A DNA stretch of 53,714 nt, counting the filler, from Jimgerdemannia flammicorona (Eukaryota): NCBI GenBank assembly GCA_003990765.1. It is 3 parts of 3 records of this genome, joined end to end, with 100 filler letters (N's around TTAATTAATTAA, not from the genome) between each part and the next. Parts side by side here need not be neighbours in the genome. Positions count along the whole stretch, not along the records: positions 1 to 17,844 come from RBNJ01002386.1; 2 more parts are not named here. The stretch is one strand, 5' to 3'. Under the pieces are notes generated by a model that searched no databases, was not told where the DNA came from, and saw nothing but the letters and a program-made list of their open reading frames with translations. Positions 1,379 through 47,864 of the stretch are shown in pieces (the stretch's first letter is position 1; each line of letters starts with the position of its first letter). The position numbers were made by a program, and so were the translations under genes.

Positions 1379-1598
1379 CTAGAATAGACCGGTTTCGCCC
1401 TTGCTTAAGGGGCTCATCAGTTGGTTTACAGCAACCAAGACCGGCATAAGGAACCGGTCAAAAGTAAAGTTAGTAGGTGATTTGGATTTCGAAGATTATA
1501 CAATATTCACCACGTTGATTTGATATGAAATACTTATCTGCATGGAGATATTTATCAGCTATAGAAGGAAGGTATGAGGAGTCGGAACCCCTACATAC
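1379..1598 (-). other. Putative spliceosomal intron hosting the hammerhead ribozyme
   Basis: Minus-strand donor GTATGT at 1598 (alternative GTATTG at 1643), branch point TACTAAC at 1475-1469, acceptor TTCTAG ending at 1379. Followed by a 25-nt candidate exon (1378-1354) and another donor-like GTGCGT at 1353. No transcript evidence. Confidence 0.5.
1388..1445 (-). ncRNA. Type III hammerhead ribozyme
   Basis: Minus strand reads GCCGGUC UUGGUU gcugua AACCAA CUGAUGA GCCCCUU aagc AAGGGC GAAA CCGGU. Both core boxes (CUGAUGA, GAAA) are intact. Stem I is 6 bp (1438-1433/1426-1421), stem II is GCCC(c)UU/AAGGGC, stem III is GCCGGU/ACCGGU. The GUC triplet predicts cleavage between 1439 and 1438. Confidence 0.9.
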
Positions 1599-1871: not shown

Positions 1872-2287
1872 ACCAAGAGAGATCACCGGTGAATGGTTTG
1901 CAGGAATGTCTTGGAAGCTATGTGTTATGAGGGGAAACTGAGGCCGACGGGAGCCCAGTTGAGGTGCGGTGTAGACATTACTCAGCCACTGCACATAGAG
2001 CTATACATGGCTGCCAAATTCCATCATCATTATAAAAATAAAAATAAAAAAAAATCATATCTGACCCAATTTGCATCATCCCTCTTCCCGGACCTCGGGA
2101 TGACAATCATCCACCTCAGCGCCTTCCTCATTCTCACACCAATGGTCTTCCTCCCAGCCCGAAACCTCAGCTACACAAGCCTCATCAGTATTATTGACTT
2201 GATTCTCACCTTTCACCAGTATCATTCAGGTGACACAAGACTCAGACAACACTTTTCTCAATGTTTTTGGTGACAGATGACATCAAC

Positions 2288-4203
2288 ATGGATAGCAATG
2301 ATCAATCTGGTGAGCGTGCTGGCCAGGGGGGCAGTGATGCCTTTGGCTGGCAATAGGTAGAGAGGAGGAGAGATGGTTTGGGGATGCTGGGGGCCTTGAT
2401 GGCTGACTGAGGCACTGGTGGTGGAGGGAGGGATAGCTTGAGGCAGCGAGGAGGGGAGAGGTTGACCTTTGCTGACAAGGTCAAGATGGGGAGGATGGCC
2501 TTGGGTCTGGATGGCTGGCTGGGCCTAGGGAAGATATTAATGGCTACTACTAGAGGTTAAGAAGGAGTGCCCAGGGGAGCATCTGGTGGTAGGAGAGGGG
2601 GGGAGTAGGGGCTGGTAATGTGACTGTTGATGGGGCTGTGACTGAGGATCTGGATAAAAATCCAGATGTAACAGCAGTTGATGAATCAGGACAGAGGGTG
2701 GATATGAGGCCCAGAGACCTGGTAGATGGAGTGATGAGTATAGTATCAGTACTGTTACTCAAGAAATCAAGGTTGGAATTTGTCATCACAATGTGCTTCA
2801 GGGACTTGGCAGTAACTGTGAGGATGATCTTGGGACTGGTGACACAAGAGACAAAGGGGGTAGCATTAGTGAAGTTTTTGAAGAGAAAAGAAGAGGTCAA
2901 GGTAGGATTTGAGGAAGAGGAAGCATTGTTGGCTGCCATGAAGAAGGGGGTGACAGTGGGTGAAGTTGTGGTCCCTATGACCAGGTGCATATGCTGGGAC
3001 CCCCGAGTGATGCAGTTGATGATATTGGATCTTCCTACAGTATTGAGGGAGAGGGCCAGGGAATTGATTGTAGGGGCAGTCAAGGAGTATGGAGAGATTG
3101 TGGACATTGGGTTTAAGATCTGGGAAGGAACAAAGCTCTGGACTAGTGATATTGATATCCAGGTGAGGCTGGCTGGAAAGGAGAACATGAGAAAGACAAG
3201 GGATTGGCCAGCAACTCTGAAGTGGGAACCAGTAGAGTGCAAGGTCATGTGAGTGAGGGAGACTCTGGAAGAGGAGAAAGATTTGTTTGAGACTCTGGAG
3301 AACCTGGAAGAGGCAGTCGAGAGGAGGAGATTGGCTTGACAGAAATATGAAGCAAAGATGGTGGTGGAAGTAGTCGAGAGGAAGAGGACCAGAGTGGACA
3401 AGGTGACCTGGGAGAAGATGCAAGGGAGGAGAATCCAGAAGGAGCTACTGACGAAGTTGGAGAGCAGTGGGGCTGGCAGTGGTACAGGGGATAAGAGAGC
3501 AGGATTGCATATGAGTGACTGGATGGGGGGAAGTGAGATGGCCCAAGGTGGAGCCCAGAATAGACCAAGAGAGGAGGAGCAGAACAGTGTAGAGGTGGAT
3601 GCAGAGATGAGTGAAGGAGTCCAATCTCAGTATAGTGTCCCAGGGGGAGCAGGGGGTGAGGTGGAGTTACTGGATATCCCAGATGAGGAGTGGGATAAGT
3701 CGGTAAGAAGGAGCACTCTGGTGGACCTGGGGGTGGGGGATGGTCAGGTTGTCCAGAGTATGGTAGAGGCAGTAGATGAGAAGAAGTAGCTGTAGAAGAC
3801 TTTGGAAGAGGTGGCAGCAGAGGAGCTAGGGGGAGAGGACTTCCAGGTTATGAAGGAAAGGCATTAGGAGGAAATTCTTCATAGGGAGGAGGTGCCAAGG
3901 AAGGTTAGAAATGAGATTCTGGTAGTACTATTGGAATCAGTTAAATATCAGGTCGATGACCAGTGAGAGGAGGAACTTCAGAAGATTGCGAATGATAGGG
4001 TGGCTTACTTATAGGGATTGAGAAAGAGATTGGAGAAGTGGAGAGTGGTCTGCACAGACTATCAGATAGAGATGGAAGTGGTAGATGGGGTGGAATGTTA
4101 GGAAATCTTAGAGGCATTGGATGCTCAGACTGTAGTGGAGGGGGACTTAAAAGCAGAGCAGTGATTGGATCTGACTGGGGATGAGATGAGTATGGAATAC
4201 TAG
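2288..4203 (+). pseudogene. LINE ORF1 (nucleic-acid-binding, RRM-like), interrupted by stops
   Basis: Collinear with ORF1 of copy 2 (e.g. VMQLMILDLP...KEYGEIVDIG); several in-frame stops. Confidence 0.8.
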
Positions 4204-4234
4204 GCTGGGTTATCACATTCAAATATTATTCAAT

Positions 4235-7200
4235 ATGAATAGTATAACTAGAATATTCTCTTTGAATGTAAATGGGTTGAGGGGGGCAGCTCAGCAAAAG
4301 TTCATATTTGGTTGACTCAAGGGACTGGATGCAGATCTCTTTTTACTGCAGGACATATATTACGAGACAGAAGTAGACTTTCAGGATTGGACTAGGGAGT
4401 GGGGGGGAGTGGTGGTGTGGTTTGGGTGGATAGCTATCTTAGTGTGGAAGGAGATGGGGGATATTGGTGATAGGGAGTCAGTTGGTGTAGGGAGTATGGA
4501 AGAGACCTGGTTGGAGCCCTTTGATGGTTAAGTTATATTATTGCCTAGTAGAGAGGGGGGAGTGGGTGGACTGAATCAGGAATTTGCAAGAGGCTGGTAT
4601 CTTGGTTGAGGCTGAAATTGAATGCCTGGAGGGGGATTTCAATATAGTAAGAGATAATGTAGTAGACCAGACTGACAGTGGGAGAGAGATGAAGGACCAA
4701 AGTGGCGGATTGGATAGTTGGATGGAGATGGAGAGGTTGAGCTCTCTGGTAGACTTGGAGAGATAGTTCTGGGAGGATTATCGAATTTATACTCACTGGA
4801 TAACTGGCCTGAGTTCTAGAATTGACTGGATACTGATAGCAGAATACTGGGGAGTGGATGTCTGGACTATGCTGGAGGTGGTATAGTGCCCATGGTCTGA
4901 TTACTGGGGTCTGCTTGGGGGGGGGGAGGTTTGGGGGAAGTAGGGATGGGTCTGGACATTGGCAGCTCAATTCCTCTTTATTGGAGGATAGCAATTTATG
5001 GGCTGACTGAGAGACAGAGGTTGTTGGAAAAATTGATCAATGGTGGGAGCAGGGCCTGGCAATAGGAGATCATTGGAGAAGGCTGAAATCGAGTGCTCAG
5101 GGATATTGGAGAGAGGCAGGGAAAGGGAGGAGTGCTCAGCAGTGACAGAGAGTGTGTTGGGCCTTGTAGTGGCTGGGGACACTTCTGGAGAGATGGGCAG
5201 AAGTGCTAGAAGATAGAGAGGTGGTAGACTGGTATATTGCAAGGATTTAGAAGGAAGTCAGGGAACTTAAGGAGGTGCTACAATTGGAGGAAGAGGCTAA
5301 ATTAAAGGGGTTGGTAGCAAGGTTGAGGTGGTAAGGGTTGGAGGAAGAAGAGTGACCCACTCAGTTTTTATCATGGATATTATAAGTATAAAAAACTAAG
5401 CAGTGGTGGGATAGCATCTTAGATGAGAATGGAGAGATGGTGGTGGAGACTCCAGTGATTCTGGGATTGCTAAGGTCCTACTGAGAGCACCTATGGAGTG
5501 AGGAAGAAGGGGGTGGAGATGTCTTGGACATTGAATGGTAGTTGGAGAGTTGGCATCTGAACCCAGCAATGGGGCTAGGGGCTCTAGGGGACTGAGTGAG
5601 AGGGGAGGAGGTGTGCAAGGTCCTGGCTTCGACAAGTAAGGGGATGGTGCTGAGAGAGGATGGGCTTCCCTGGGATTTTTGGAAAAAGATGGCCAGATGT
5701 ATGATGAGGTTCTTCAGTCTGGAACTTGGATTGGGGGCCAGCATCTAGGGCTGGTCTCTTTGCTCTTTAAGGATAAGAGGAGAAAGGAAGATTGGAAGAA
5801 CTGGTGTCCGATCATACTCCTTGATATGGACCACAAGCTGGTTATGAAGGTCTTGGTGACTAGGCTGCAGGGGATTGCTCAGCAAGTGCTGGAAGTTGAG
5901 CAGAAAGGTTTTGTTAGTGGTCGGTTGATTCGAGATGAGATGGCCTGGGTTCATGAAGTGATTGAAGGGGCTCAGGCTGCTGGGGTTGATGGCTGACTGG
6001 TGTTTCTAGATCAGGAGAAGACATATGATAGAGTGCAGAGGATCTGGCTAGAAGGAGTGCTGAAGCAGGTGGGTGTTTCACTAGGGTTCTGGAGGTTATT
6101 AATCAGTCTTTTGGAGGACAGTCAGACAGACTTGGTGGTCAATAGATACAGGGGTGTCACCTTCCCTCTGGGTCATAGAGTACTGCAGGGGGATCCTTTG
6201 TCACCCATCTTGTATACCCTTTCCTTGGAGCCCCTATTGGATAGGATCCAGTGTCGAATTGGGGGTTTGGACATTCTAGGAATTAACTGGAAGGTGGGGG
6301 CCTTTGCAGATGATATGGTAGTTGGATTGGGTTCATTGGCAAATGTGGAAGAATTGTGGCAGACTGTGGAATGGTATGAGAGGGGCTCTGGTACTAGGCT
6401 CAATTGGCACAAATGTGAGACTATGATGTTGGGTGGAGGAATAGTTGATGGTGACATGATTGAGATGGTGGTGCTAGCAGGAGATCCCATTTGCTATCTG
6501 GAGATCTACTTCTCCATATATGGGTCTCTCCTTTCTCACACTTAGTGGGAACAGCAACCCCTAGTATGGGGAAATGAGCTTTTATAGTGGGGCAGTCAGC
6601 ACATTTCCTTGGCAGGAAGGGTGATGGTGCTGAATATATATTGGCTGTCAAAGTTGTGATATGTGGGGTATCATCTCGACTTCCCAGTGTGGATAGTCAG
6701 ATACCTTCTGAAGATAGCAAGGACATGGATCTGGGCTGAGCAGCAGAGTCAGATAGGATGAGAGGTGCTGACTCTACCTGTAGATAGTGGTGGACTGGGC
6801 TTGGTGGACTTCCCCAAACACCTTCATTGCTTATGAGTGTGGTGGCTGAAGAGGGTGAGTGAGTTACGGGGACAGGAGTGGGTACTGCTCATGCAAAGGG
6901 TGTGGGAGGCCTGGTATTTCCCCTGCAGTACATCTGGTGATCTGCTTGCAATGGTGGCCCTGGATGGGAGCGAGAGGATGTGATATAAGGGCTTTTGGTG
7001 GGGGGTGGTAGATGGTACTTGGAGAATTGATTTGCGATGACAGGGCAGTGAAAGTGAGGGAGATTGGGGACTGCAGATGTGGAGATGGGACAGGCTTCTG
7101 TTAGGTGGTACTTTGGTAGAGGACTTTCAGCTTAGCAATAGTATGGAGTGCTTGGGGGCTTAGGGGGGGACTGGTGGCCTATTGTGTAGTAGAGGGTGGG

Positions 7201-7810
7201 GATTAGCAAGGGGTGGAACTGGAATAGGCTTTGGCCTTAGAGCAAGCAGATGATGCAGTGGCTCCCTCCCAAGTTCTGAGTAGTGTGGTGACAGTTTCTA
7301 AGGCAAAATGTGATGTTGAACTTTTGGTCTGGGCACTTAGTGGCAGATAGACAGTATGAGTGTGAGGAATGTTTGGATGTTAGACAAGAAGGGGAAGTGA
7401 TTCAAATGCCTGAACATTGGTTTGGGAAATGTAACATTCTGGGGGTTTTTTGGCATCGTATTGCAGACAGGTTAGGACTATAAGCCCTGGTAGAAGGAGA
7501 AGGGAGGAGATAGAGAGAGCTCTACTGCAGGTTAGTGGAGGGGGTTGATGATGAATGGCTGACCCTGAGTTGGGCTCTGGCAATTTGGATTGGGCTTGTC
7601 AGACATTGGTTATATATATTTAAGAAGGGTTGGCAGATAGAGATTGGGGATAGGGTGGCATGGTGAGAATGGCTGTTATTGGATATTTTGAATAGCTAGT
7701 AGTGGGGGTGGGGACCTGGAGGGGGTAGATGTCAGAGACTGGTGAAGTATATGTGCTGAAAAAGTAGAGGGCAGGTCTGAGTGGTGGGTGACTAGGTTAT
7801 CTTCTAATAA
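4235..7810 (+). pseudogene. LINE ORF2 (APE endonuclease + reverse transcriptase), decayed; 3' end approximate
   Basis: NVNG, GDFN, SRIDW, KNWCPI, DQEKTYD, QGDPLSP and FADD motifs visible in fragments. Confidence 0.85.
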
Positions 7811-7918
7811 GGAGGGGTGGAGGGGGGTGAGGGGGATCCAAGAGATATTGGGTGAGGGGATGGGGGTAATATTGTATTATTAATGTAGATTGCAGTAATA
7901 AAGGGAAGTCCAAGTGAC

Positions 7919-7954
<36 letters not shown>

Positions 7955-8093
7955 CATCAGTATTATCAGTGTAGTAAACATTTCATTATCATAATGTATG
8001 ACAGACATCTAAGAATGAGAGTCCTGGGAGTCTGAGAGATCTTATAGTAGGTTTTTGAGGCTAAATATTGAGATATTGAATTTGCTGAGTGAG

Positions 8094-13734: not shown

Positions 13735-13832
13735 AAGAGATAGAGAGAGTCACCTTTCACTGGTAACATTCAGGTGACACAAGATTTGGACAACACTTTC
13801 TGCGAAGTTTTTGGTGAAAAGCTACTATCAAC

Positions 13833-15752
13833 ATGGCAAGCAACGAGCAAACTGGTGGGCAGGTCGGCCAGGGGGGCAGCCGTGCCTTCGACTGGCAGCA
13901 GGTTGGGAGGAAATGAGGAGATGGTTTGGGGATGCCAGGGCCGTCAGTGGTGGGCAGTGGCACTGGAGGTGGAGGGAGAGGTGGACTGAGGCAGAGAGGT
14001 GGGGGGAGGGCGACCTTTGCCGACAAGGTCAGGATGGGGAAGATGGCCGCAGGGCTGGATGGTTGGTTGGGACTGGGGAAGGCAATGCCGGGTTCGGAAG
14101 GAGGGCAGGGAGGATCCCCCATGAGAGCCTCAGTCGGTATGGGGGGAGGGGGAGTAGGGGTTGGAGATGTGACTGCTGATGGGGCTGTGACGGGGAATCT
14201 GGAAAAAAATCCAGATGTGACGGTGGTTGGCGGATCCGGACAGAAGGAGGGCACGAGGCTCGGGGACCTGGCTGATGGAGTGACGGGCATGGTGTCGGCA
14301 CCGTTACTCAAAAAGTCGAGGTCAGAATTCGTGGTCACATTGTGTTTCCGAGGCTTGGCAGTGACTGCGAGGATGATTCTGGGGCTGGTGGCGCAGGAGG
14401 TGAAGGGGGCAGCTACGGTCAAGTTCATGAAGGGGAAGGAAGGGATTGAGGTTGGGTTTGAAGAAGAGGTGTTGATGCTGGAGGCTATGGAGAAAGGGGT
14501 AGTGGTGGGTGGAGTAGTAGTTCCTATGGTGAGGTGCATGCGCTGGGACCCGAGAGTGGTGCAGTTGACGGTGCTGGATCTTCCTACAGTGTCGCGGGAG
14601 AAGGCTAGGGAGTCAATTGTAGAGGTGGTCAAGGAGTATGGGGATGTCATCGATATCGGGTTCAAAGTCTGGGAGGGTACGGAACTTAGGACTGGAGATG
14701 TGGATGTAAGAGTACGCTTGTTTGGCCAGGAGAACACGGGGAAGGCGAGGGACTGGCCGGCGACACTGAGGTGGGGACCAGTTGAGTGCAGGGTCTCTCG
14801 GGTGAAAGGGATGCTGGAGGAAGAGGAGGATTTGCTGGAGGCTCTTGAGGATCTGACGGGAGCTGTCGAGAGGAGGTGGTTGGCTTGGAAGGAGTATGAG
14901 GCCAAGACGGTGGTGGAAATTGTAGAAGGGAAGAAGATCAGGATGGATCGAGGAACTTGGGAGAAGATGCAGGGGAGGTGTATTCAGAAGGAGCTACTGG
15001 AGAAATTGGGAGGAGGCGCGGTGGAGGGTGGAGAGGGAGGAAGTGGAGTAGGATCAAGGGGAAGTGACTGGGCTGGGGAGCCCCAAGTGGATCAAAGGGT
15101 GGCCCAAGAGGTCCGTGGGGAAGGAGGGCAGGGCGGCGTGATGGAGGACGCTGAGATGAGCGTAGAAGTACAGCCACAGTACGGGGTCCCGGAAGGTGTC
15201 GGAGGTGAGGAGGAGCTTCTTGATGTCCTGGAGGAGGAGTGGGATGAGTCGGGAAGGAGGATCGCATTGGTGGACCCGGTGGTTGAGGGGGAAGGGGGTG
15301 CCCAGGGTGCCGAGGCAGTGGTGGAGGAGGAGAAGTGGCTGTGGAAGACTCTGGAAGGGGTGGCAGCTGAGGAGCTGGGGGGTGAGGACTTCCGGGTTAT
15401 GAGTGATAGGCACTGGGAGGAAATTCTGCATGGTGAGGAGGTGCCAACGAAGGTCCAGAATGAAATTCTGGCGGTGCTCCTGGAGTCGGTGGAGTATCAA
15501 GTCGATGATCAGCAAGAGGAGGAACTTCGGGTAATTGCAAATGATCGAGCAGCTTATCTGTGAAACTCGAAGAAAGGGTTGGAGAAGTGGAGAGTAGTGT
15601 GCAGGGAGTATCGGACCGAATTCAAAGTAGTTGATGGTGCAGAGTGCCAGGAAATCTTGGAGGCACTGGATGCGCAGGAGGTGATGGAGGACGAGTTGGA
15701 GGCTGAGCGGCGCAGGGATCTGGAGGGGGACAGGAGGAGCATGGAGTTCTAG
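13833..15752 (+). pseudogene. LINE ORF1, ~640 codons, two in-frame TGA stops
   Basis: ATG 13833 is in frame with ORF 13926-15563 and continues to TAG 15752. Gly-rich N-terminus, RRM-like middle (VVQLTVLDLP...EYGDVIDIG...RTGDVDVRV), acidic C-terminus, no CCHC knuckle seen. Confidence 0.82.
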
Positions 15753-15782
15753 ATTGTGATATCCCTACCTACATTATTCAAT

Positions 15783-17844
15783 ATGAACAGTACAACTAGA
15801 ATTTTTTTTTCTTTGAACGTCAATGGGCTAAGGGGGGCGAAACGGCGTAGAAATATTTTTAGCTGGTTGAAGGGTCTGGAGGCAGATCTCTTCCTATTGC
15901 AGGATGTGCGGTATGAGCCGGATGTGGACCTACTGGACTGGACTTGGGAATGGGGTGGGGCGGCTATATGGACAGGGCAGATGGGCATTCTGGTTCGAAA
16001 AGGGATGGGGGACATTGGGGACGATGGACATTGGGGGAGTAGGCTGGTATGGGGAGTTTGGAGGAGGCCTGGCTGGAACGCTTTGACTGTTGGGTCGTGC
16101 TATTGCCCAGCTGTGAGAGGGGAGCGCATAGGCTGGATCAAGGACTTGTGTGAGGCAGGGGTCTTGGGGGAAGCTGGGATTGACTGTCTGGGGGGTGACT
16201 TCAATATGGTGCATGATAATGTGGTGGATAGGACTGATGGGGGGAGAGGACTGCGAGGTAGAAGTGGAGGGCTGGAGGATTGGATAGAGGTGGAGAGGTT
16301 GAGTTCATTGGTGGACTCAGGGCGACAGTTCTGGGGGGATTGCCGAATCTATACTCATTGGGTGGCAGGACTTGGATCCAGAATCGACTGGGTGTTAACG
16401 GCGGAGTGCTGGGGAGTGGATATCTGGGCTACGCTGGAGGTGGTTTGGTGCCTGTGGTCCGATCACTGGGGGCTAATAGGGAGTGGGAGATTTGGGGGAA
16501 GTGGGGATGGGCCAGGGCACTGGCGGCTCAACTCGTCTCTGTTGGAGGATGGTTCTCTATGGACTGATTGGGAGGTGGAGGCTACCGAGAAGATTATCAG
16601 ATGGCGGGAGCAGGGATTGGTCATTGGAGATCGATGGAGGAGGCTGAAGTCAAGTGCTCAGCAGTTCTGGGGGGAAGCAGGGAAAGGGAAGAGTGCACAA
16701 AGGTGGAGGCAGGTACAATGGGCCTCACATAGATTGGGGTCACTTTTGGAGAAATGGGCAGAGTGGATAGAAGATGAAGGAGTAGTGGAGTGGCGAATTC
16801 AGCAGATAAAGAAGGAGGTGGAGGAGCTGAAGGAGGTGCTACGGAGGGAGGAAGAGAATCGAATAGAGGGAATGATGGCGAGACTGAGGTGGCAGGGACT
16901 GGAGGATGGGGAGCGTCCTACTAAGTTTCTCTCCAGGCTGCTCCAAGCACAGAGGACCAGGCAGTGGTGGGATGGGGTCTTGGACGAGGATGGGGAAATG
17001 GTGGGGGGTACGCCAGAAATACTGGAATTGTTACGTAACCGCTGGGGGTGTTTGTGGAGCGAGGAGGATGGCGGGGAGGATGCACTGAACATTGAAAGGC
17101 AGTTGGAGGACTGGCATCCAGACCCGGCCCTAGGACTGGGGACACTGGGAGAACCAGTACATAGAGAGGAGGTGTGTAAAGTTCTGGCCGCGACAAGTAG
17201 AGGGACTGCTCCGGGAGAAGATGGACTTACCTGGGACTTTTGGAAGAAGATGGTCAAGGTGGAAGGGGTCTTGGAGGAGATGACTGCGATGTGTGATGAA
17301 GTTATTCGATCTGGTGTCTGGATTGGGGGTCAGCGCCTAGGACTGGTCTCCCTGCTCTTTAAGGATAAGGGGAGGAGGGAGGATTGGAAGAATTGGTGAC
17401 CGATCATGCTTCTGGACATGGACTGCAAGTTGGTGACGAAGATCTTGGTGAATAGACTACAGGGTATCGCTCAGCATGCTCTGGGAGTGGAGCAGAGAGG
17501 ATTTGTTGGGGGTAGGTTGATCCGAGATGGGACTGCATGGATCCATGGGGTGATTGAAGGAGCTCGGGCGGCTGGGGTTGATGGCCGGTTGGTGTTTTTG
17601 GACCAGGAGAAGGCATATGACAGAGTAAGGAGGGTCTGGCTGGAAGGTGTATTGAGGCATATAGGCATCCCGATGGCGTTTCGGAGGTCATTAATCAGCC
17701 TATTGGAGAACAGCCAAGCAGCTTTGGTGGTGAACGGGCACAGGGGACTGGAGTTCCCGCTAGGTCGCGGAGTGCCACAAGGGGATCCTTTGTCACCTAT
17801 TCTATATGCCCTATCCTTGGAGCCCCTTCTGGACAGGATCCGGC
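15783..17844 (+). pseudogene. LINE ORF2: APE endonuclease and N-terminal half of RT (one TGA at 17397-17399; truncated by gap)
   Basis: SLNVNG, LLQD, GGDFN, SRIDWV, SDH (APE); APGEDG, KNW*PIMLL, DQEKAYD, GVPQGDPLSP (RT). Confidence 0.92.
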
Positions 17845-17943
17845 NNNNNNNNNNNNNNNNNNNNNNNNNNNNNNNNNNNNNNNNNNNNTTAATTAATTAA
17901 NNNNNNNNNNNNNNNNNNNNNNNNNNNNNNNNNNNNNNNNNNN
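17845..17943. other. Assembly gap with synthetic TTAATTAATTAA spacer
   Basis: N-run, TTAATTAATTAA (17889-17900), N-run; same design at 35780-35879. Confidence 0.95.
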
Positions 17944-17947
17944 NGAC

Positions 17948-19600
17948 ATGAGCTACCTTCAGAAGTTCCATGGTGCAGACAATGAAGACATCGAGAAATT
18001 CTTTGGAGAAATTGAAGTTCAAGCAGCTGCCAAACAATGGGATGCTGCAAGAAAACTCAGAATTATAGAGTCACTCCTGAGAGATCCAGCCCTACAGGGA
18101 TATAATCAAGCCAAGCAAGCCGGAGGAGGAATCCATGCAGAGGAACTGAATGACGGCCTTCAACCTGATAGAAACCATGTAGCAAGGTACATGATTCACA
18201 AAGCCTGGCTCCATGCCCAGGTCAATGGATTTGAGCGCCAACAAGAAGTACAGGAGGCTTTGACCTATATGAGCCAAGCTGCCAATGAAACTCCCAAGAG
18301 TTTCTACCATTGGATTCAAGCTCAAATGATCAAGGCGAACCTTCAACTGGCAGTCCAACTGGCTCTAGCCTCAACTACCTTCCTCAATGGCTTATACCTA
18401 GAACTCTGAAGGCAAGTTATCAGGATGGGATATCGAAACATTAAACAGCAAGTTGCTGGAGCACAAGGATGTTGGGAAGCAGATTATAGACCAGTACAAC
18501 AAGTACAAGGCTATTATGAGCCAATCCGAGCTGAAACCCCAAGGACCCAAGAAATAACCATGGAGCAAGAGAATGCCTTCCTCAGAGCCCAGATAGCCAA
18601 CTATGAGAACAGACCAGCACCTACAAATCCGACTCCATTCAGGCAACCACAGCAGCAGCCACCATCAAGAGTTCAAGAAGACCCCATGACAATGCTCACC
18701 AAGCAAATGAAGGACCTGGCCATCGCGGTTGCCCAGCTGAAGAACCAAGGTAGAAGACAACAAGACTACCATCATGATAACAGACCAGACTACTAGCAAC
18801 AAGATAACAGAGGTCCTGCTCCCACACTACCAGCTGCAACTATAGTCTCATCAGCGACTGGTTCCTCTGGTCCCACCTGCTTCAACTGCAGAAATCAAGG
18901 CCACATCCAGAGGAATTGTCCAAGGAACCAATCCACCCAGTCCAATGACAGAAATGTCAACCTCTTTCAGGTAGATGAAGAGACTCAGGAGATGGAAGAA
19001 GAAGCAGCCTGGCTCCATGGTCAAGAAGATGACATCTATCCATACTTCGAGGCTTTTCCATCCAAGGTGACATGGGAAGCTGCCCCCGCAGAGACCAGAG
19101 GACAAGGAAGACCACGAAGGAACCCCCCACCTCAACTGCTAGTAACAATATCCACAGGCAAGCATCCATGACATGGCCATTCTTCTTTAGACACTCCACA
19201 AGAACAGGAGAAGCGAGTTAGAAGAGATACTCCTGAACCAGAAGCCAGACCATCTAGGACAACCCCCAGCTCTACCCTGCCAGACCTTGAAGAAGATGAG
19301 CATATGAGCATAGAATCTCCAGCTGACGAAATGCCCATCGGGAATGAGAGACTACACCCCAAGGGACCAAGACACCAAAGAACCAGCAAGCCCCATAGAG
19401 CAGCCTCACTTTGAGAACATATCCGCCTACAGAATGCTGGTCTTACAGTTGAGCAAGTCCTCAAAAATGCACCAGAGGTCTGGTGAAAATTCATGAAAGA
19501 AGCCAAGGAAGATACCAAGAGACTTCCAGTCCAAGGACCACACACTCAAGAACCTAGCACTATCTACACAGCCTATGAGAGCCAGCAACATGAACATCAA
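17948..19600 (+). pseudogene. Gypsy gag (capsid-like region and CCHC zinc knuckle)
   Basis: KFHG..NEDIEKFF capsid-type start; CFNCRNQGHIQRNC (CX2CX4HX4C) at ~18878-18920; same frame as pol with point stops. Confidence 0.85.
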
Positions 19601-30772: not shown

Positions 30773-30843
30773 ATATATTATTCTTACATTTCCTGATGAT
30801 TATTTTCTGAGTTCTTTATATTTCCTAGCAATGTTCTGATCAG

Positions 30844-33800
30844 CACCTTTCTTCTATACAATTCACATTACACCAACTTCAAGCAATAGTTTTCAACACA
30901 ACTCAGAGAAAAGGTACTATAAAAATATCATCAAGCAAGAGTTCTGATGGGCAGACTGGATCAGGTAGATCTGGGGCATTTAGCTAGCAGTATGTGGAGA
31001 AAGGTTATGGCCTGGGGATGGGGACCTTTGGAGGGTTGAAGGGTGGAGAGGGATCTGGAGAAAGACTGGTATTAGGTGGAAGTGGGAGAAGGCCTGGCCC
31101 CCCTAGCTTTGCAGACAAGATGAAGGAGAGTAGATGGCCAGTTAGAGCTAGGACTAGTGCTGCTGAGGGGAAGAGCAAGGCAAGCATCAGTAGGGGAAGT
31201 GGTACCTAGGTGAGAGATGAATAGGGGCTGGAGATGCTGTGGCTGAGGTGGGAGTGTGATGGGGAATCAGAAAAAAAAAAAGAGATATGACAGCTAATAG
31301 CAAGTGGGGCAGGGGTTCTCAAAGCAGAAGGGGGACCTGGCAGATAGTGTAATAGGGCTAGTAGTGGCACTATTACTCAAAAAGTTGATCTTTGAGTTTA
31401 CAGCAACCTTGTGCTTCTAGGACTTGGCAGTAATGACAAGGATAGTCCTGGGGATCATCTCAAAGCAGGTGGCTGAGGCTGCTTTGATGAAGTTCCTGAA
31501 AGGTCTGGAGGGGGTTGAGGTGGGCTTTGAGGAGGTGGGCCCACTAGAAGAGGCTCTGAAGACTGAAGTGATGGTCAGGAAAGTAGTGGTTCCTATGGTA
31601 TACTATGTATCTTAGATAGGACCCCAGAGTGGTTCAGTTGCTGGTGAAGGGAGTGCCTATGGTAATGGTGGTTGAGATGAGGAGGAGAGTTGAGGAGGTG
31701 ATAGCAGAGTATAGCAATGTGATTGATATTGGTTTCCAGATATAGGAGGGGACCACTATCAGGACTAGTGATATTGATATCAGAATTCAACTGGCAGAGA
31801 AGGAGGCTACTGGAAAGATAAGTGACTGGCTATTGGTGATGATATGGGGGGCTTTTATATGTTGGGTATTGAGGGTGAAAGAGAGTGAGGAGGAGGAGGA
31901 GAATCTGTTGGAGGCTCTGGAGGAGATGAGTGGAGCTGTCAAGCAGAGGGCGAAGGCCTGGAAGAGATATGTGGAGTCAACGTAATTGGAGATTGGGAAA
32001 GGAAAGTATATCTGAACTGACAGGAGGCAGTGAGAAAGGGCTCAGGAGTACAAGAGACAGAGAGAGCTGTTGGTGAGTATAGAAGATAGAGTGAAGAAGA
32101 ATGATGGTAGTATTGAGGAATCTGGGGGTACAGAGACAAGTGTCTGGGCCAGTAAGAGAGGAGAAGTGGTAGAGAGGATTCTGGAGGAGACTGGGAAGAT
32201 GCCAAATATAGACCCATTTGAGGATGGTACATTTGAAGTCTGGTAACCTATTGTGAGGAGTCCTGCTACAAAGAGCAGAGCAGCAAAGGATGTACCAATG
32301 CATAGTGCCAAGTAGGTCTACTTTGAAGTTTCTGATTTGGTAAAAGGGAGACAGGTGGTGGTAGTTGGCAAGGATGAGCTGGTAGATATCCTGGAGGAGG
32401 GGTGGAATGAGACTGTGAGTGTAGGAGTAGATACCACAATGGTGAATGCAGAAAGGCAGGTGACTCCAGGGAGGACAGAGGTGGGTAACCTATTGTAGAT
32501 GTGTCAAATAATGAATAACTTCACAGCTGAAGAATTGGGGGAAGTGGACCTGAGAGCAATGAGTGAGGAGCACTGGGCATGGATTCTGTGGGGGGATGGT
32601 ATGGTAGAGGTACTGAAGGCAGAGGTACTTGCAATTTGCCTGGAGGAGAAGAGGTATGAGGTTGATAAGGAGAGGGAGGCTGAGCTAACAGTTGCTGTCA
32701 GTGAGTAGGCTGCTTACTGCTGGGCAGAGCAGTATGGTTTACAACTCTAGCAGGAGGCTTGTCTGGAGTATCATGAGGAATTTGAGAAAAAGGAGGATGG
32801 TGAGATGGTGGAACTTCTGAAGAGATTGGAGGCAAGAGAGGCTGAAGAGAAGGGGCTGACAGTGGAATATAACTTGAACTTGGCATAGGAGAGATGGGAT
32901 GCAGATTTGTAGAGGATGAGCAAGACCTTACTTCTAAACATTATTCTCTATGAACAGTATAACTAACATTTTCTCTCTGAATGTGAATGAGTTAAGGAGA
33001 TCTGGGCAACACAAGAACATTTTTACTTGGCTTAAAGGTTTGGAGGCGGATCTCTTTCTGCTACAGGATGTATATTGTGAAGAAGATAATGACTGTGTGA
33101 AATAGACTAGAGAATGGGGAGAGACTACAGCTTGGATGGGCAAGGTGGCAATTTTGGTATAAAGTAGTAAAGATGACTTAGGGGGAATCAGGAGCTAGGA
33201 AGACTGTTTGGTATAGAGAGAATAGAATCAACCTGGGTGGGAGCTAGTGAAAGTTGGCTCTTACTACTGCCCTGCCACTAGAGGTGAGAGAATTATATAG
33301 ATTAAGGGGCTTTTGGAGGAAGGTGTGCTCTTGGAGAATGGTATTGATGTACTGAGAGGTGACTTTAATATGGTATGGAATCTGGAGTTAGATAGAACTG
33401 ATGGAGGGAGGAGTGCAGTTGAGAGGAGTGGTGGGCTGGATTCTTGAGAGGAGGTAGAGAACCTTAGCTCATTAGGAGATATGGTGGGGTAAAAAGAGGA
33501 TCTACATATACTGAGTGAATAGTCTTAAGATAAGGATAGATTGGATTCTGATGGTCAAATGCTGGGGTGTGGATGTCTGGAGGACTCTAGAGATAGAGTG
33601 GTGCCTGTGGTCTGACCACTGGGGTCTGTTGAGGTAGGGGCAGTTTGGGGGGAGTAGAGATGGACCTGAACATTGACACCTTAACTCCTCTCTGCTGGTT
33701 GAGAAGGTTTTGTAGGACCCATAGATGTAGGACATCTAAGAGAATATTGCCAGCTAGACACACAAGAGTTTGCCAGTGGGGGTCTGATGGATAAAGTTGA

Positions 33801-35758
33801 AAGAGACTAGATGAGTTTAATGAGGAGGGGCTGGCAGAGAGGCAGGGAAGTAGAGAATGAAAAGGGTGAGGTGTGCTTTCAATCAGTTGGTTAGATGGCA
33901 GATGGATTGAGCAGATTTGTTAAATTCTGGTGAGGCCAATGATTGGAGGTTGGAGTGTACAAAATTGGAGGTAATAGAGCTGCAACAGGTGCTAAGAGAG
34001 AAGGAGGAGATACATATGAAAGAAATGATAGCCAGGTTGAGGTGGCAGGGACTTGAGGAGAGAGACAGGTCTACTAGATATTTGTCATGGCTCCTCCAGG
34101 CCAGGAGGGTATGGCATTGATGGGATGGGGTCCTAGATGTAGAGGGGGAAATAGTATATAGCATGCAACAGATCTTGGGGGTACTGAAGGAGAGGTAGAG
34201 GGGTCTGTAGAGTAAGAAGGAAGGGGGTGAGGATGAGGAGGCAATTGGAGAATTGGGACCTACTGCAAGTAGAGAGCCTTGGTGACTTAATCCTACTAGT
34301 CCAAAAGCAGGAGATCCAAAGAGTTCTTGCAGCCACTAAGCTTGGGATAGTACCAGGAGAGGATGGGTTACCTTGGGACTTTTGGAAGAAGATGGTGAGG
34401 GTTCCTAGAGTTTTAGGAGAAATGGCTGCCCTCTGTGACCATGTTTTTCTGAATAGTGAGTGGGTTAAAGAGCAAGACTTGGGGTTGGTAGTCTTGTTGT
34501 ACAAAGACAAGGAGAGGAGAGAGGACTGGAAGAACTGGAGACCAATCATACTTCTGGATATAAACAGGAAGATGGTGACTAAGATGATTGTTGTAAGGTT
34601 ACAAAAGGTTGCCCAACAGGTGCTGCATGAGGAGCAGTAGGGCTTTATTGGTGGCAGGTTTATTAGAGATGGGACAGCCTGGGTTCATAGTATTATTAAA
34701 GAGACATGGGCTTGTAGATTGGATGGAAGACTGGTCTTTTTGGACCAGGAAAAGACCTATAACTGTGTCTGGTGGGTGTGGCTGGGCAAGATACTGGATA
34801 GATTCAGTATTCTCCTACAATTTTGAGCTCCTATGTTGAACTTGTTAAAGAGCAGTAGGGCAGCACTGATGTGTAATAGCCACTGGGGTCTAGAATTCTC
34901 CTTGGGAAGAGAAGTTCTTCAGAGAGATCCACTGTCTCCTATCCTTTATGCCCTTTCATTAGAACCTTTGTTGGATAGGATACAACAGAAGGTGGCAGAG
35001 CTCTCTGTGTTTAGTGTGGTGTGAAAGGTGGGGGCCTTTGCAGATGATATAGTCATTAGACTTGGCTTGGTGACAGATGTTGAGGTGCTTGAGAAGATGG
35101 TTGAATAGTATGAGGCACACTCTAGAGCAAAACTCAACTGGCGTAAGTGTGAGATGATAGTGCTGGAGAACAGGCTCATGGAAGGAAACATCATTGGAAC
35201 AATTGTCCCTATAGGAGAGATAGTGAGATATTTGGGCATCTTCCTTTCTGTATATAGTTCTGTCTTACTACAGTTGTGGTGAGAAAGGCAGGTGGCCATT
35301 TGGTTAGAGGTTGGGGAGGTCACTACATCTCCCTAGTAGGCTGAGTATCAATCCTAAATATCTACTGGTTCCCTAAGCTGTGGTATATTGTGTATCATTT
35401 AGACTTTCTAGCTTGGGTGGTGAAGAGATTGATGAAACTGGCTAGAGATTGGATTTGGATAGAGAGGCAGCCTCAGATAAGTTGGGACACTCTGGCAACA
35501 CCAGTGGTTTAGAGAGAGCTAGGCCTAGTAGACTTTCCTAAGAGGCTGTCCTGCCTGCAAGTATGGTGGTTGAAAAGGACTGTTGATTTGCAGGGATGAG
35601 GTTGGGTGCTACTGATGCAGAAGGTATGGGAAATGAGGTTCTCTCCATACAGGTCCTCAGGAGATTTGTTATCTCTAGTGGGTCTGGATGGAAGCTAATG
35701 GCTATGGTATAAGGGCTTCTGGTGGAGAGTGGTGGATAGAGTATACTGAATCAGCCTA
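30844..35758 (+). mobile_element. L1/Tx1-like LINE copy 3 (second subfamily), decayed, 3' truncated at a poly(T) tract
   Basis: ORF1 remnants, ORF2 ATG at 32950, KNWRPII, QRDPLSP and FADD; breaks off at poly(T) 35759-35779. Confidence 0.9.
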
Positions 35759-35779
35759 TTTTTTTTTTTTTTTTTTTTT

Positions 35780-35879
35780 NNNNNNNNNNNNNNNNNNNNN
35801 NNNNNNNNNNNNNNNNNNNNNNNTTAATTAATTAANNNNNNNNNNNNNNNNNNNNNNNNNNNNNNNNNNNNNNNNNNNN
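35780..35879. other. Assembly gap with synthetic TTAATTAATTAA spacer
   Basis: N-run, TTAATTAATTAA (35824-35835), N-run. Confidence 0.95.
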
Positions 35880-38800
35880 CTCCCCCCCTTCCCCCCCCCA
35901 CCCTCTCCCAATGAAAGACTACTTTGTCCAACACCATCTCCACCCACTCACCACTCTGCCCACAAATCTCCTCTACCAGACAGCAACATTGCCCACCCCA
36001 GGGACCCCAACCAACCCACCACCCAGTTATTAGATCTCCCAACAACTCCTTCCACCTCAACAACTTCTCCTGCAACTCTATCTGTCATCCATCCTTAAAA
36101 ACAAAAAGCCAATGACCAGCCAGCCCAACCTACACTGCTACAACCCACCCTACAGTGAGACACTCATTGCCTATATCTCCCACTAGTCTAGATCTTAAAT
36201 CCTCCCATTGGTCTCTCACTCCATCTAGCCTCCTTTCAACACTCAGCTGGTCCCCTATAGCTATCCAAAAGTCCTCCAAAACCTCACACTCACCCAGTCA
36301 ATGTTCCAGCATCTGCACAAATCCCTCAGCTTGCTCTATATTATAACACTCCTCACACTCCAGTTGGCCACCAACTACCAGATACCCAGTACAGAAATTT
36401 AACATAACATTCCTCTACAGCATTCACCACTAAATCACCCAGAACTTGGGAGGTAGCCACTGCTGCACCTCAGCACTCCAGGACCAGATTCCTGCTCAGT
36501 CCCACTCCTCACCAATCCTCACTACCTGCCAACTGCTCAGCCAAAGGTTCTGGCCAGGACTCTGCTGACACTCCACCCCATCACCAATGTCAAACTCTGC
36601 CAGCAGAGTCCCCTCTAGAAGTAGTTAGTCCCACTGCCACATAGCAGGGCCCCATATCACCTCCCCCTTATTGCCACACCAGCATAGTCCAATCTAGTAT
36701 ACTCCATCCACCACTCCCCACCAGAAGCCCATATACTGTATCTGCTGGCTTCTATTCAGACCCACCAGAGAAAGCAAGTCACCTGAGGAACCTCAAGAAG
36801 AGACTCTCATCTCCCACACCTTCTGTATCAGCAGTATCCAACCTCCTCCCTGTAATTCAACTGCCCTCTTCAACCACCATACTTACAGGCAGTAAAGGTG
36901 CTTAGGGAAGTCTACAAGATCTAGGCCTCTCCTAATCACTGGCTCCACCAGGGTATCCCAACTGATCTGGGACCTTCTTCCTGCCCAAATCCAATCCCTA
37001 GCCAGTTTCATCAATCTCTTCACCACCCAGACCAGAAAGTCTAAGTGATACACCATGTACCACAGCTTGGGGAACCAGTAAACATTCAAGATTGACACCC
37101 TCTCTACCATGGAGATGTGATGACCCCCCCAACCTCTCAGAGCCTCCCCCCAAATGGCCACTCTCCTCTTCCACCACACCCTGGGAAGGACTGACCCATA
37201 TACTAAAAGAAAGATCCCAAGATACTGCACCACCTCTCTTGTGGAGACAATTGTTCCAATGACGTCCCCTCTCACTAGCCCATTCCCCAACACCATTGTC
37301 TCACATTTATGCTAATTGAGTTTCATCCCAGAGTATGTCTCATACCATTCTACTGTTTTTTTAAGTATCTTGATATCTGCAACTGATCCAAGTCCAACTA
37401 CCATATCATCCACAAAGACCCCTACCTTCTGTACCACTCTATAAATAGAGAGCCCAGTCACCTTCTGGCAGATCCTATCTATCAAAGGTTCCAGTGAAAG
37501 GGCATAAAAGATAGGTGACAGCAGGTCTCCTTGAGGTACACCTCTCCCCAGGGGAAATACCAAACCCCTGTGACCATTACACATCAGTACTGCCCTACTT
37601 CCCTCCAACAAACTCAACATAGAAGCCTGAAACTGTGGAGGAACACCAATCCTGTCCAGAACCTTGCCCAATCATATCCACTGAACATGGTCATAGGTCT
37701 TCTTCTGGTCCAAAAAAACCAGTCTACCATCCAACCCACAAGCCCGGGCCCCTTCTATGATACCATAAACCCAGGCAGTTTCATCTCTAATAAGTCTACC
37801 TCCTATAAAGCCCCACTGCTCCTCCCCTATCACCTGTTGAGCAACCTTTTGTAGTCTTGCCACAATCACCTTAGTCACTATCTTCCAGTCCATATCTAGA
37901 AGCATGATGGGCCTCCAGTTCTTCCAGTCCTCTTGCCTGCCCTTGTCCTTGTACAATAAGGCCACCAGCCCCAAGTCCTGCTCTTTGACCCACTTGCCAT
38001 TTAGAAGAATATGATCACAGAGGGCAGCTATCTCTCCTAGCACTCCAGGGATCTTCACCATCATCTTCTAGAAGTCCCAAGGCAACCCATCCTCCCCTGG
38101 TACCATCCCAAGCTTAGTTTCTGCAAGAACTCCCTAGATCTCCTTCTCTTGGACTAGCAAGATCAAGTCACTGAGTCTCTCCACCTATGGCAGCTCTCAC
38201 TCTTCCAGTATGTCTCTAATTGCCTCTTCCTCTGCACCCCCTTCTTCCTCACTCCACAGATCCTGCTATCTCTCCTTCAAAACCCCCAAGATCTGGTGTG
38301 TGCCATGTACTATATTCCCCTTGGCATCCAAGATTCCATCTCACCGATGTTGCACCCTCTTGGCTTTGAGTAGCCTAGACAAGTATCTAGTAGGCCACTC
38401 TCCCTTCTCAAGCTCCTGCCACCATAACCTGGTAGTCATTCCATATATATGAATCTCTTCCTCCTCTTTCAACACTTGTTGCAGTTCCACTACCTCCAAT
38501 TTCGCCCTCTCTAATCTCCAATCTTCCACCTCAACAGAAGAAAGCAGATCAGCCCATCTCATCTGCAATCTCACTAGCCTATTTGAAGCACACTGTACGT
38601 GCTTCCTCCTCTGTCTCCCAGCCTCCCTACCAGCTCCTCCCCAATAAACCCTAGCAGCCTCCTTCAACCTCATCTACCAAACACCTACAGACAAACCCTC
38701 ACACCTCCAGATAAGAACCTTTGCCTGTATGTCCTCCACCCATGAGTCTCACAACCCCTTCTCTGCCAGCAAGGAGGAGTTAAGGCACCAATGTCCAAGT

Positions 38801-41661: not shown

Positions 41662-42319
41662 ATTAATAGAATACTACTATAGCCCTCAAGATTACTAGTG
41701 TTGCACAATGAGCTATAAAAAGACAATAGTGCACTACCAAGCTACTGATCATAGAAGAATCCTTTGATAGTATCCAGAGTATTATCCAGATACACTTGTT
41801 ACAAATCTCATATTTTAAGATCTACTAGAACTAGACTGAGTTTTAAGAATACTTCAAAATAGGATAGCTACTAAACTTATAGTCAGAGATAGAAAAAGAA
41901 GACTAAATTGGAGAATGCTAGCTCTTTTATGCTCATATCATAATCACTAAGTGAGTTAATAAGTTGTTCAAAGATAATGAGTCAGCTCTTGCCCATTTTT
42001 AAGAAATAGTCCCAAAAGACTTTGGATATATTAAGAGATACTACTGGAAGAATATAATGACACAAATCACCTATTCAGAAGAAAGTTGTAGTAGTTGATC
42101 TGAATTAGTAATATAAATTAGAAGAATAGATATTTGATCATAGTATCTAAATCTAATTCTCAAATATAGTATAATCTTATAAATAGCAGTCATATTTTAC
42201 AAATATTAAAGTTTTTACAAATATTAAACTCTTCACAAATGTTGAGATTTAATAGATATTAAGGATTAATACTTATAAAAAATAACTCATATAAAATATA
42301 GTTATAACTTAACAATCTT

Positions 42320-43654: not shown

Positions 43655-45533
43655 TCACAATCTATAAGTTATGACGTACGTAGGATAGAACCGTCCAAGC
43701 GAGTACACAATGTATATCTCGCTTCCAGAGGTGTATCCTGAAAATGTAAATGCGCATTAAACAACGTGCTTGATCTTTAAAAATGAAAGTCGATTGAGCT
43801 GCCATGGGGCCGTCGAATCAATAAGACTGGCCCAAACCCTTACCCTTGATCGAGTCATGTCGTTCGTCCTCGAACGTCCCGCGTTGCGTCACTTTTACTG
43901 GAGGAAGGGTAATGTTTGGGTCGCTTGGCAGATATATCGAATCGCCCGTGATGACCTATGATATTGTCATTCGGGAACATTTGAGTATGTATGCTACTTT
44001 TATTCCAGCAGCGCCATGGTGATTTGATATGGAGCGCAAATACTAACGTTAGCTAAAATGAACTGCTTATTCCCTAAATCATCCGTGGATGCGTAGTTGT
44101 TGGAGTAAGATGCGTTCACCGCAAAGTAGCAGCCTTTGCCCCATAAACCTAGCTCATGTCAAAAAAAGATTTTGTTTAAGTGAAAATCAAGCGACGGTTG
44201 AAATCGGATCCATAAAGAAAAATATTTCTCACCCTTCGATGAGAATCTGGGGTCAAACCCTTCCTCACTCTTGTATATGGAACTAGGTGGCGTGGCCCTC
44301 GTGCCGTGGAAAAGAGATATATCGTTTACTTGGCCCTCGTTTTTCTTCGACATCTGGCGATGGTTGTGCTGGTATGTAGACCACAGGTGTCGATTCTACG
44401 TGATGTGCAAAAATGGTCAATTGGTGGATGACAACTCTTACGTTATATTAAATGGCTGAAACAAAGAAATAAATGTTGTTAACGGTACGGACTTGCACTC
44501 GCTCAATCTTCTGGATTCTGGCATGCGGTAATGTCTGGTGTACGCGCGCGGCCACTCTATTCCACTCCGTACTCGTGGTACCCAACGCCACTAATACACA
44601 GTTCACCTTCTCATCGAACTTGTCCCAGCCCTTCGGTACGTCGTTTTCGATGTTGCGTGACTTATCGAACGCCCACTTGTACACCTCCGCTCGCACGGCG
44701 TCTACAGACCCCTCGTGCCCGGTCAGTTTGATTGTATTATCTATGGTGTTGAACTCCACGTCTACGTACAGACGTCTAGCGATCCTCCGAACGGCCTCAT
44801 CGCGCTCCATCCGGTCAATTTTATCGAAGTCACTCATGGGAAGGAACTCGGCCTTTGGCTTCACGAGCGACTCCAGTTCTTGTGCGGCGGTTTCGGTGTC
44901 AGCCCGCCTACCCGTGATCACGAATTCGATGGGATCTTTCCAATATCGGTAATTGACGGGGATGGGTTTCTGATTACGTAGAAAAAACATTCCGCATTAG
45001 TGTACCACCGGTGTCGGGAATTGCAATTCGTAATAAATTTCATATAACTATATAAACCTCGTCGTTATTCGACGCAACTTGCGGGCACGGCAGCTGTGTT
45101 TTGGCCGCTATCGGTATGGTGACATCTTTGCGCATAATGACCCGCTTGTAACCTGTCTTCGTATTTTTCTGAAATTGGCCATTGTCATCGAATAGGATTT
45201 CGTATGTAGTCCCGCATATGACAATGTTCACCGAAGCCACCACCGGGATCACAGAGATCGGGGTTACCTCTGGGATAGGGGTTACTACCGTGATCGGGGC
45301 TACTACCGGGATCGAGACTATCACCGGGGTCGAGGCTACCACCGGAGTCAAGTCTACCACCGGAGGCGGATCGGGCTTTTTTCCGAAAAGGAGATCCAGA
45401 AAGCCGGGCTGTTGCTGTAGCTGTAGTTGTTGCTGCTGTTTTCGTAGTTGCTGCTCCCGTTGCTGCAGCTGCTGTTGCTGTTGCTCTAGCTGTTTATTTA
45501 GCTGTAGCTGTTGCTGATACTGTTGCTGTAGTC

Positions 45534-45569
<36 letters not shown>

Positions 45570-47596: not shown

Positions 47597-47864
47597 GGTT
47601 GATACGTGGTAAGCCACAGGGATGTTTAATTACTTGACACGAGACGTCACCGGAAATCTGGCTTACGTATGACACTGCAAACCTTGTTTCGACTGCGGCA
47701 GCCGATCATATAATTACGTAAAGCTCGAACCAGGATCTGAGATTCTCTACAAAGGCATGTAACCTTCTCGTCACATGATCATTTTTTGGAAGCTAAAATT
47801 TTAATATCATAATTTTTAATATTTATACTATAAGGCTCTAATAATATATTTTTAATATATAAAT

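Follow-up and report, generated by a model that had tools for sequence, protein, structure and literature searches.

Animal genomes harbour very many hammerhead ribozymes, the control of which is understood mainly through a weak helix III and a dependence on dimers. ASBVd provides an example of control by double hammerheads and alternative folds. According to passages of PMC4209133, PMC7229834 and PMC7761336, the type I hammerheads of metazoa possess a helix III of only 1-2 bp, which is capped by a small palindromic loop, and these ribozymes are poorly active as monomers and active as dimers. Type I topology is encountered mostly in animals, and type III topology mostly in plants and infectious circular RNAs (passages of PMC7761336). 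The hammerheads of Penelope-like elements (PLEs) are located near 3' ends (a section of PMC8557442), and control through double hammerheads and alternative folds has been described for viroids and satellites (a section of PMC4209133). Alternative inactive folds of hammerheads and palindromic helices III are thus established features of this ribozyme class. A type III-permuted derivative of an animal type I hammerhead that carries a competitor palindrome in cis was not found in literature listings, and a literature search for the sequence strings of the ribozyme described below, supplementary ribozyme catalogues not included, gave no relevant match.

The locus described here lies on the minus strand of a 53.7-kb stretch of DNA from Jimgerdemannia flammicorona, the whole of which (53,714 nucleotides, filler included) is termed the window. 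Judged by its sequence and its modelled fold, the hammerhead within 1387-1459 is genuine. The core (clan CL00010) is complete and comprises CUGAUGA at 1420-1414, GAAA at 1396-1393, the pair A1393-U1440 as A15.1-U16.1 and a GUC that ends in C1439 (Table 1). Taken alone, the 62-nt core is predicted to adopt a hammerhead fold of -19.0 kcal/mol, in which helices I and III have 6 bp each and helix II is formed as well. A full hammerhead descriptor, which demands the core boxes, H17 and minimum lengths of 5 bp for helix I, 4 bp for helix II and 5 bp for helix III (A15.1-U16.1 included), matches the window once, at this site, and has no match in 300 dinucleotide-preserving shuffles (32.1 Mb, both strands). 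The simple pattern CTGATGA-N(6-34)-GAAAC also has a single match in the window, yet alone it is weak evidence, since 29 of 100 shuffles contain at least one match.

At gathering thresholds, no Rfam family matches anywhere in the window. Under permissive settings, RF00008 (Hammerhead_3) aligns over model positions 7-48 of 54 and scores 24.1 bits, which does not reach its gathering score of 48.5; the E-value amounts to 0.0042 for 251 nt and to 0.91 for the whole window. The locus resembles RF00008 in topology and core, whereas the seed members of that family, from plants and viroids, are unrelated to it in sequence. In the Rfam alignment and in the folds, helices I and II are capped and helix III is open, and the topology is accordingly that of type III. 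A type I reading with cleavage after C1387 was ruled out: there is no partner for helix I downstream, and the UAUUCU that follows C1387 cannot pair with AACCAA. Separately, UUGGUUUGCAGG at 1348-1337 (minus strand), 38 nt beyond the CCGGUC that follows GAAA, is similar to UUGGUUGCUG, the strand on the 3' side of helix I in the family; this similarity may be due to chance or may mark the remnant of a type I layout.

Table 1. Features of the hammerhead locus and LINE-type copies in the window (window coordinates)
Feature	Position	Strand	Basis or remark
Recurring block: whole ribozyme plus upstream palindrome, joined to unlike flanks	1388..1466	-	contig comparison
Competitor strand, palindrome copy 1, GACCGGUU	1452..1459	-	sequence; pairs with 1394-1387 (8 bp) or 1445-1439 (7 bp)
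Linker CCUUAU, after GACCGGUU and before GCCGGUC (1445-1439)		-	sequence
5' hairpin (HP5) of 1459-1453 and 1445-1439, loop of 7 nt	1439..1459	-	folding prediction
Stem III 5' strand GCCGGU (copy 2) plus C17 = C1439	1439..1445	-	sequence, Rfam alignment, fold
Predicted cut	between 1439 and 1438	-	sequence and fold
Helix I hairpin UUGGUU/AACCAA, 6 bp, 6-nt loop GCUGUA	1421..1438	-	Rfam alignment, folds
Core box CUGAUGA (C3-A9)	1414..1420	-	sequence, Rfam alignment, pattern match
Helix II hairpin, closing pair G10.1-C11.1	1397..1413	-	Rfam alignment, fold
GAAA box (1396-1393) plus stem III 3' strand, copy 3, ACCGGU (1393-1388); AACCGGUC = 1394-1387	1387..1396	-	sequence, pair list
LINE-type copies	2200-8000, 13750-18400, 30800-35800, 47860-52600	+	
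LINE-type copy	36600-41700	-	

Relatives of the ribozyme occur in environmental contigs. Public collections were scanned with a core pattern in which the CCAA of helix I, CUGAUGAG, two pairs of helix II, CGAAA and CCGG were fixed and position 10.2/11.2 was left free. The scan yielded 26 matches in one viral and 16 metagenome loci, two of which (L015 and L016) share a contig and overlap there. At the free position, all 26 matches have a Watson-Crick pair, and four types of pair are represented (G-C, A-U, U-A and C-G), which argues that the matches are true hammerheads. Three builds are found among them. Type I ribozymes with a minimal helix III (L002, L005, L006, L012 and L015/16) read GAAA and then directly CCGGUC^UUGG, such that helix III consists of one A-U pair and the palindromic tetraloop CCGG. 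Type I ribozymes with a proper helix III hairpin are represented by L001, L007, L008, L009, L014 and L013, the first five of which read GAAA-CCGG..loop..CCGG-UC^UUGG. Finally, type III topology with a capped helix I occurs in L003, L004, L010, L011 and L017, the copies being 486-538 nt apart. In L010 (360-2419), and also in L011, L017, L003 and L004, such tandem hammerheads are accompanied by further type I matches on both strands; environmental contigs of the L010 type are ribozyme-dense, retrozyme-like loci.

The window ribozyme is closely related to the first of these builds. Positions 1386-1427 are 95.2% identical to L005 over 42 nt, and the identity of the same segment amounts to 92.9% for L006, 88.1% for L012 and 85.4% for L015. 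The ribozymes of L005 and L015 lie in perfect tandem repeats of 530 nt and 647 nt, respectively. The ribozyme is thus homologous to the type I family with a weak palindromic helix III known from retrozymes, and its relatives carry GAAACCGGUC^UUGG. The locus can be compared with the hammerheads of non-LTR retrozymes and of satellite repeats in amphibians (Cervera & de la Pena 2014, 2020). Its core and helix II are nearly identical to those of the environmental tandem-repeat members, the relatives build helix III from an A-U pair and a CCGG palindrome, and, following passages of PMC7229834 and PMC7761336, this helix III architecture is expected to restrain self-cleavage. Unlike in non-LTR retrozymes, helix I at the locus ends in a loop of 6 nt and the strand with the cut site is positioned 5' of the core, so that the topology is not that of type I; moreover, the 53.7 kb contain one ribozyme and no tandem repeat of it.

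The difference in topology is explained by a rearrangement of shared parts. Positions 1429-1444 of the window equal L005 301-316 at 16 of 16 positions, but this string lies across the core from its place in L005. There, CCGGUC^UUGGUUGCUG follows the GAAA box; in the window, the same string precedes the core with a few bases in between, and besides this string 5' of the core a second CCGGUC is retained after GAAA. Read at the sequence level, the window copy is demonstrably permuted in a circular manner relative to L005. It is one active site of a would-be double hammerhead between adjacent tandem units, the intervening body of which has shrunk to a 6-nt loop. With the parts permuted and helix I closed by this loop, the RNA is predicted to act as a type III hammerhead that cleaves its own strand after C1439. 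The loose ends of contigs contain other copies with the same capped helix I and other loops, e.g., GCUUUUA, and therefore the capped form is a family trait rather than a deletion private to this locus. A pattern for the permuted junction had no match in viral_contigs, and its single match in genome_contigs was dismissed as chance, since it falls inside a bacterial coding region and comes without a GAAA box.

The feature that sets the locus apart from its relatives is an additional palindrome. Three CCGG-centred near-palindromes are present, namely ACCGGU at 1458-1453 (copy 1), GCCGGU at 1445-1440 (copy 2) and ACCGGU at 1393-1388 (copy 3), and any two of them can pair. All environmental relatives found by the core-pattern scan lack the third palindrome. 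As the earlier note had pointed out, GACCGGUU (1459-1452) and AACCGGUC (1394-1387) are perfect complements, forming 8 Watson-Crick pairs on the minus strand, and this outer helix excludes stem III, because the 3' 8-mer spans A14 and A15.1 as well as the complete 3' side of stem III. Both 8-mers are unique in the window; the expectation from a first-order model is 3-5 x 10^-4 per 100 nt. That two-state picture overlooked two further properties of the segment: copies 1 and 3 also constitute a 6-nt direct repeat, 65 nt apart, and, ACCGGU being self-complementary, copy 1 can take the 5' side of stem III as an alternative partner, in a 7-bp hairpin (1459-1453/1445-1439).

The three helices differ in predicted stability. 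All energies stem from nearest-neighbour models, which ignore the tertiary contacts of the hammerhead as well as kinetics. The catalytic state (ACTIVE; copy 2 with copy 3, 6 bp) is assigned -18.3 kcal/mol, the outer helix (OUTER; copy 1 with copy 3, 8 bp) -22.5 kcal/mol, and the 5' hairpin (HP5; copy 1 with copy 2, 7 bp and a 7-nt loop), which buries U16.1 and C17, -23.2 kcal/mol. Predicted direct-path barriers to ACTIVE amount to 13.0-13.5 kcal/mol. HP5 and OUTER being 4-5 kcal/mol more stable than ACTIVE and separated from it by a barrier of about 13 kcal/mol, the models predict a ribozyme that is largely inactive as a monomer.

Partition functions agree with this ranking of states. In the 62-nt RNA that lacks copy 1, stem III accounts for 0.72 of the ensemble; in every modelled RNA that carries copy 1, its share is at most 0.016. 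The shares of stem III, OUTER and HP5 are 4.7e-6, 0.52 and 0.17 at 86 nt, 0.016, 0.56 and 0.10 at 101 nt, 0.0022, 0.035 and 0.92 at 151 nt, 0.0017, 0.027 and 0.93 at 261 nt, and 0.0012, 0.009 and 0.95 at 351 nt, respectively. In simulated folding of the growing chain, HP5 is present once 1437 has been transcribed and persists from then on, and of all chain lengths only the one ending at 1383 has OUTER as its best fold. In the models, OUTER is therefore the lesser of two off-states at realistic transcript lengths.

Two controls bear on the specificity of the effect. If the upstream 20 nt are shuffled, the median probability of stem III is 0.58 (86 nt) or 0.55 (151 nt), and values as low as the native one are reached by 0 of 200 shuffles at 86 nt and by 2 of 200 at 151 nt. 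Environmental copies of type III topology, modelled in context of equal size, form helix III with a probability of 0.79-0.82 in 4 of 5 distinct copies and of 0.008 in the remaining one. Based on these controls, the upstream segment would be a specific and strong inhibitor of stem III, as far as the models predict. The overall stability of the segment is ordinary: the RNA 1475->1375, the folding of which the earlier note had proposed, indeed contains the outer helix in its best fold (-27.1 kcal/mol), but its z-score is -1.51, and 17 of 200 shuffles are at least as stable.

The earlier note had construed these helices as a two-state switch, in which the outer helix marks an inactive, splice-permissive state and stem III an active, cleaving one. 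What holds of this proposal is the mutual exclusion and the strong predicted inhibition, and short RNAs of 86-101 nt indeed favour the outer helix, which is their best fold and takes 0.52-0.56 of the ensemble. However, there are three states rather than two, and at 151 nt and above the 5' hairpin dominates (0.92-0.95) over the outer helix (0.009-0.035 at 151-351 nt). Furthermore, no gene model, exon, intron or other splice signal and no family-matched open reading frame (ORF) was found around the ribozyme, which leaves a "splice-permissive" state unsupported, and the block is a dispersed repeat. We consider a switch of this kind, regulating an intron-borne ribozyme, very unlikely.

The reading that we put forward instead, and that we hold to have an even chance of being correct, sees in the locus a solo copy of a multi-copy hammerhead module of the retrozyme/Penelope-like class, with copy 1 as a built-in attenuator and, as we infer, without a function for the host. 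Its starting points are what was shown for the anatomy of the sequence, its homology and permutation, the energies predicted together with their controls, and the recurrence of the block described below. The module would belong to a retroelement-type, multi-copy hammerhead family, the helix III of which is built on a palindromic CCGG. In the present copy, permutation has placed the strand with the cleavage site, together with the 3' strand of helix I, 5' of the core, helix I being closed by the 6-nt loop; copy 1, which is located 8-20 nt upstream of the cut site, would act as the attenuator. Transcription would first yield the 7-bp hairpin of copy 1 and the cleavage-site strand, thus hiding the cut site; after emergence of the 3' strand, the 8-bp outer helix would provide an alternative lock, and the catalytic fold would remain a minor, kinetically hindered state. 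By analogy with related systems, the lock may have been selected for and may be used in the life cycle of the element, where it would limit the self-cleavage of element RNA.

As modelled, the locus shares with the double hammerheads of viroids and satellites the principle that the choice of partner by a helix III strand gates catalysis, and that inactive folds protect the full-length RNA. In contrast to these double hammerheads, the active site is strictly monomeric and the competitor is a third palindrome copy in cis. In type III topology both strands of helix III must flank the same helices I and II and hence come from one molecule, which closes any dimer route; dimeric (double-hammerhead) action at the locus is excluded by topology. 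In amphibian retrozymes, restraint is exerted through a weak helix III and a dependence on dimers, and in the locus it would come from an extra competitor copy in cis; the effect would be analogous, the means are different.

A possible, though less probable, explanation takes copy 1 as the passive relic of a neighbouring unit without any regulatory role. The hairpin 1459-1439 would then be a type I helix III hairpin with cut site and helix I 3' strand, the segment 1458-1394 would represent one permuted unit of 65 nt plus a terminal redundancy of 6 nt (ACCGGU), and the competing helices would result automatically from a self-complementary helix III motif that is present three times. This explanation gains from the fact that ACCGGU is its own reverse complement, so that an extra copy must pair with the others, and from the direct repeat that copies 1 and 3 form at a distance of 65 nt; the same build of the helix III hairpin is shared by L001, L007, L008, L009 and L014, and the window copy is permuted relative to L005. 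However, the inverted reading of the repeat accounts for 8 of 8 positions and the direct reading for 6 of 8, copy 1 is preceded by UUG rather than GAA, and no core box is found upstream. Against a passive role also stands the fact that the recurring block keeps copy 1 and the sequence branches a few bases upstream of it, as expected for a functional part of a module.

The recurrence of the block was assessed by comparison with two small public contig sets (X1 and X2, library type not on record), the share of words being 0.17 and 0.14, respectively. The comparison covered positions 1-2600, where stretches without contigs are uninformative. Contigs were counted on the block if they are at least 90% like the window, which makes for a biased sample. 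Many contigs fall on the ribozyme block, and pieces of them span 1390-1466, 1390-1473, 1390-1490, 1402-1463 and 1402-1462. At least 24 contigs (15 from X1 and 9 from X2) match as far as 1380-1394 and then diverge from the window; past this point the diverging sequences agree poorly among themselves (0.53-0.63 in rows with several contigs). On the other side, a few contigs share the upstream flank of the window, to 1490, 1523 and 1561. The bin 1393-1479 greatly exceeds its neighbours in summed word depth, a quantity that should not be taken for a copy number. The edges of the block fall within a few bases of the two 8-mers, and thus the upstream palindrome belongs to the recurring module. Within the window there is no second copy of the block, the 53.7 kb holding one hammerhead.

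Among the contigs at least 90% like the window, three ribozyme variants are frequent: A1425>G turns a U-A pair of helix I into U-G, C1443>U turns G-C into G-U, and G1432>U affects loop 1. The change C1443>U fits stem III and the hairpin equally and hence does not discriminate between these helices. No variants in the core boxes, copy 1 or copy 3 are listed among these same contigs. The conservation of copy 1 is known only from this set, and copy 1 could be a passive relic.

The earlier note had also offered the 8-bp inverted repeat as the ends of a tiny insertion, and in a related vein the repeats might be regarded as terminal inverted repeats of a MITE-like DNA transposon that carries the hammerhead by chance. 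The positions of the block edges (1388-1390 and 1462-1473), a few bases from the 8-mers, fit such a notion, and that part of the suggestion stands. Yet the 8-bp inverted repeat lacks a target-site duplication: on one strand, the flanks of the two 8-mers share no repeat of 2 nt or more. The block edges lie asymmetrically with respect to the repeats, the upstream flank of the window recurs in some contigs as far as 1490, 1523 and 1561, and all of the sequence between the repeats consists of ribozyme parts. An origin as a MITE-like transposon is highly improbable on these grounds.

A bolder view, which we regard as doubtful, is that 1459-1387 represents a self-contained hammerhead element without cargo, i.e., a spreading module of about 75 nt that consists of a 65-nt unit (1458-1394) and a 6-nt terminal redundancy. 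The basis for this view is a 65-nt unit, all helices of which can be capped, together with the redundancy. In a circular or tandem arrangement of the unit, each of the three helices would carry a cap, with the 5' hairpin in the role of helix III, and the CCGG palindromes would function as helix III, as the lock of the off-state and as microhomology at the ends. Known animal retrozyme RNAs measure about 170-400 nt (passages of PMC7229834); an element of this size would, if real, be by far the smallest mobile unit that bears a hammerhead.

As in PLEs, the ribozyme of the locus lies in the sense strand near a shared boundary (1388-1390), and the upstream matches to the window extend to various points (1466, 1473, 1490, 1523 and 1561). 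In PLEs, however, pseudo-LTRs with the ribozyme flank an ORF for the reverse transcriptase/GIY-YIG endonuclease, and a scan of the 40 window ORFs with a length of 150 aa or more revealed no GIY-YIG/PLE reverse transcriptase and no Penelope-type ORF. The hammerheads of PLEs also differ in being minimal type I forms without helix III.

The window as a whole has the character of eukaryotic DNA and contains LINE-type retroelements. In a comparison of the same 40 ORFs with Pfam, only LINE-type RVT_1 and Exo_endo_phos domains and a Macro domain were matched, and neither long ORFs of bacterial style nor tRNAs were found in the window. The LINE-type retroelement (Exo_endo_phos/AP endonuclease plus RVT_1) is present in at least five diverged copies with about 60-85% identity, and its sense strand is strongly G-rich (GC skew between +0.4 and +0.5). 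N letters occur in four runs of 44 nt, which form two pairs. One pair, at 17845-17944, interrupts a LINE copy, and the other, at 35780-35879, borders on a further LINE copy; the runs may be assembly gaps or masked stretches, and the first pair falls on the filler that follows position 17,844. An inverted duplication (11918-13734/23993-25808) comprises three pairs of arms of 693, 274 and 843 nt, which are 85-93% complementary and lie about 10-12 kb apart. The Macro-domain ORF (45680-46534, minus strand, E = 8.8e-35) is intronless, has its best relatives among bacterial-type O-acetyl-ADP-ribose deacetylases (38-48% identity) and adjoins an 18/12/6-nt tandem repeat of the GCTGTT type (45256-45632). 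These homologues point to no particular lineage, and a comparison with the Atlas yielded only weak leads (under 0.9), to clusters of arthropods and molluscs.

Closer to the ribozyme, a perfect 19-nt tandem repeat (2.4 copies, 1827-1871) is located about 400 nt upstream. On the minus strand, this repeat contains CCAAT-like and TGACGTCA-like motifs and is followed by a TATAA string near 1745; by their sequence, these motifs and the TATAA string may be a candidate promoter. The CpG content of the window is low (observed/expected 0.30); despite this, three CCGG sites are crowded into 70 nt of the ribozyme block, compared to 48 in the whole window.

Taken as modelled, the locus exhibits an architecture that differs from what has been described for the same family of hammerheads: the ribozyme would be monomeric, permuted to type III and restrained by an extra helix III palindrome in cis. 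It varies a familiar design rather than introducing a novel type of switch. Should the lock fail, the locus would be a decayed copy of a repeat. Should it work, a segment of about 75 nt would constitute a compact natural ribozyme gate with three states, and would help to explain how the RNAs of such elements escape self-destruction.
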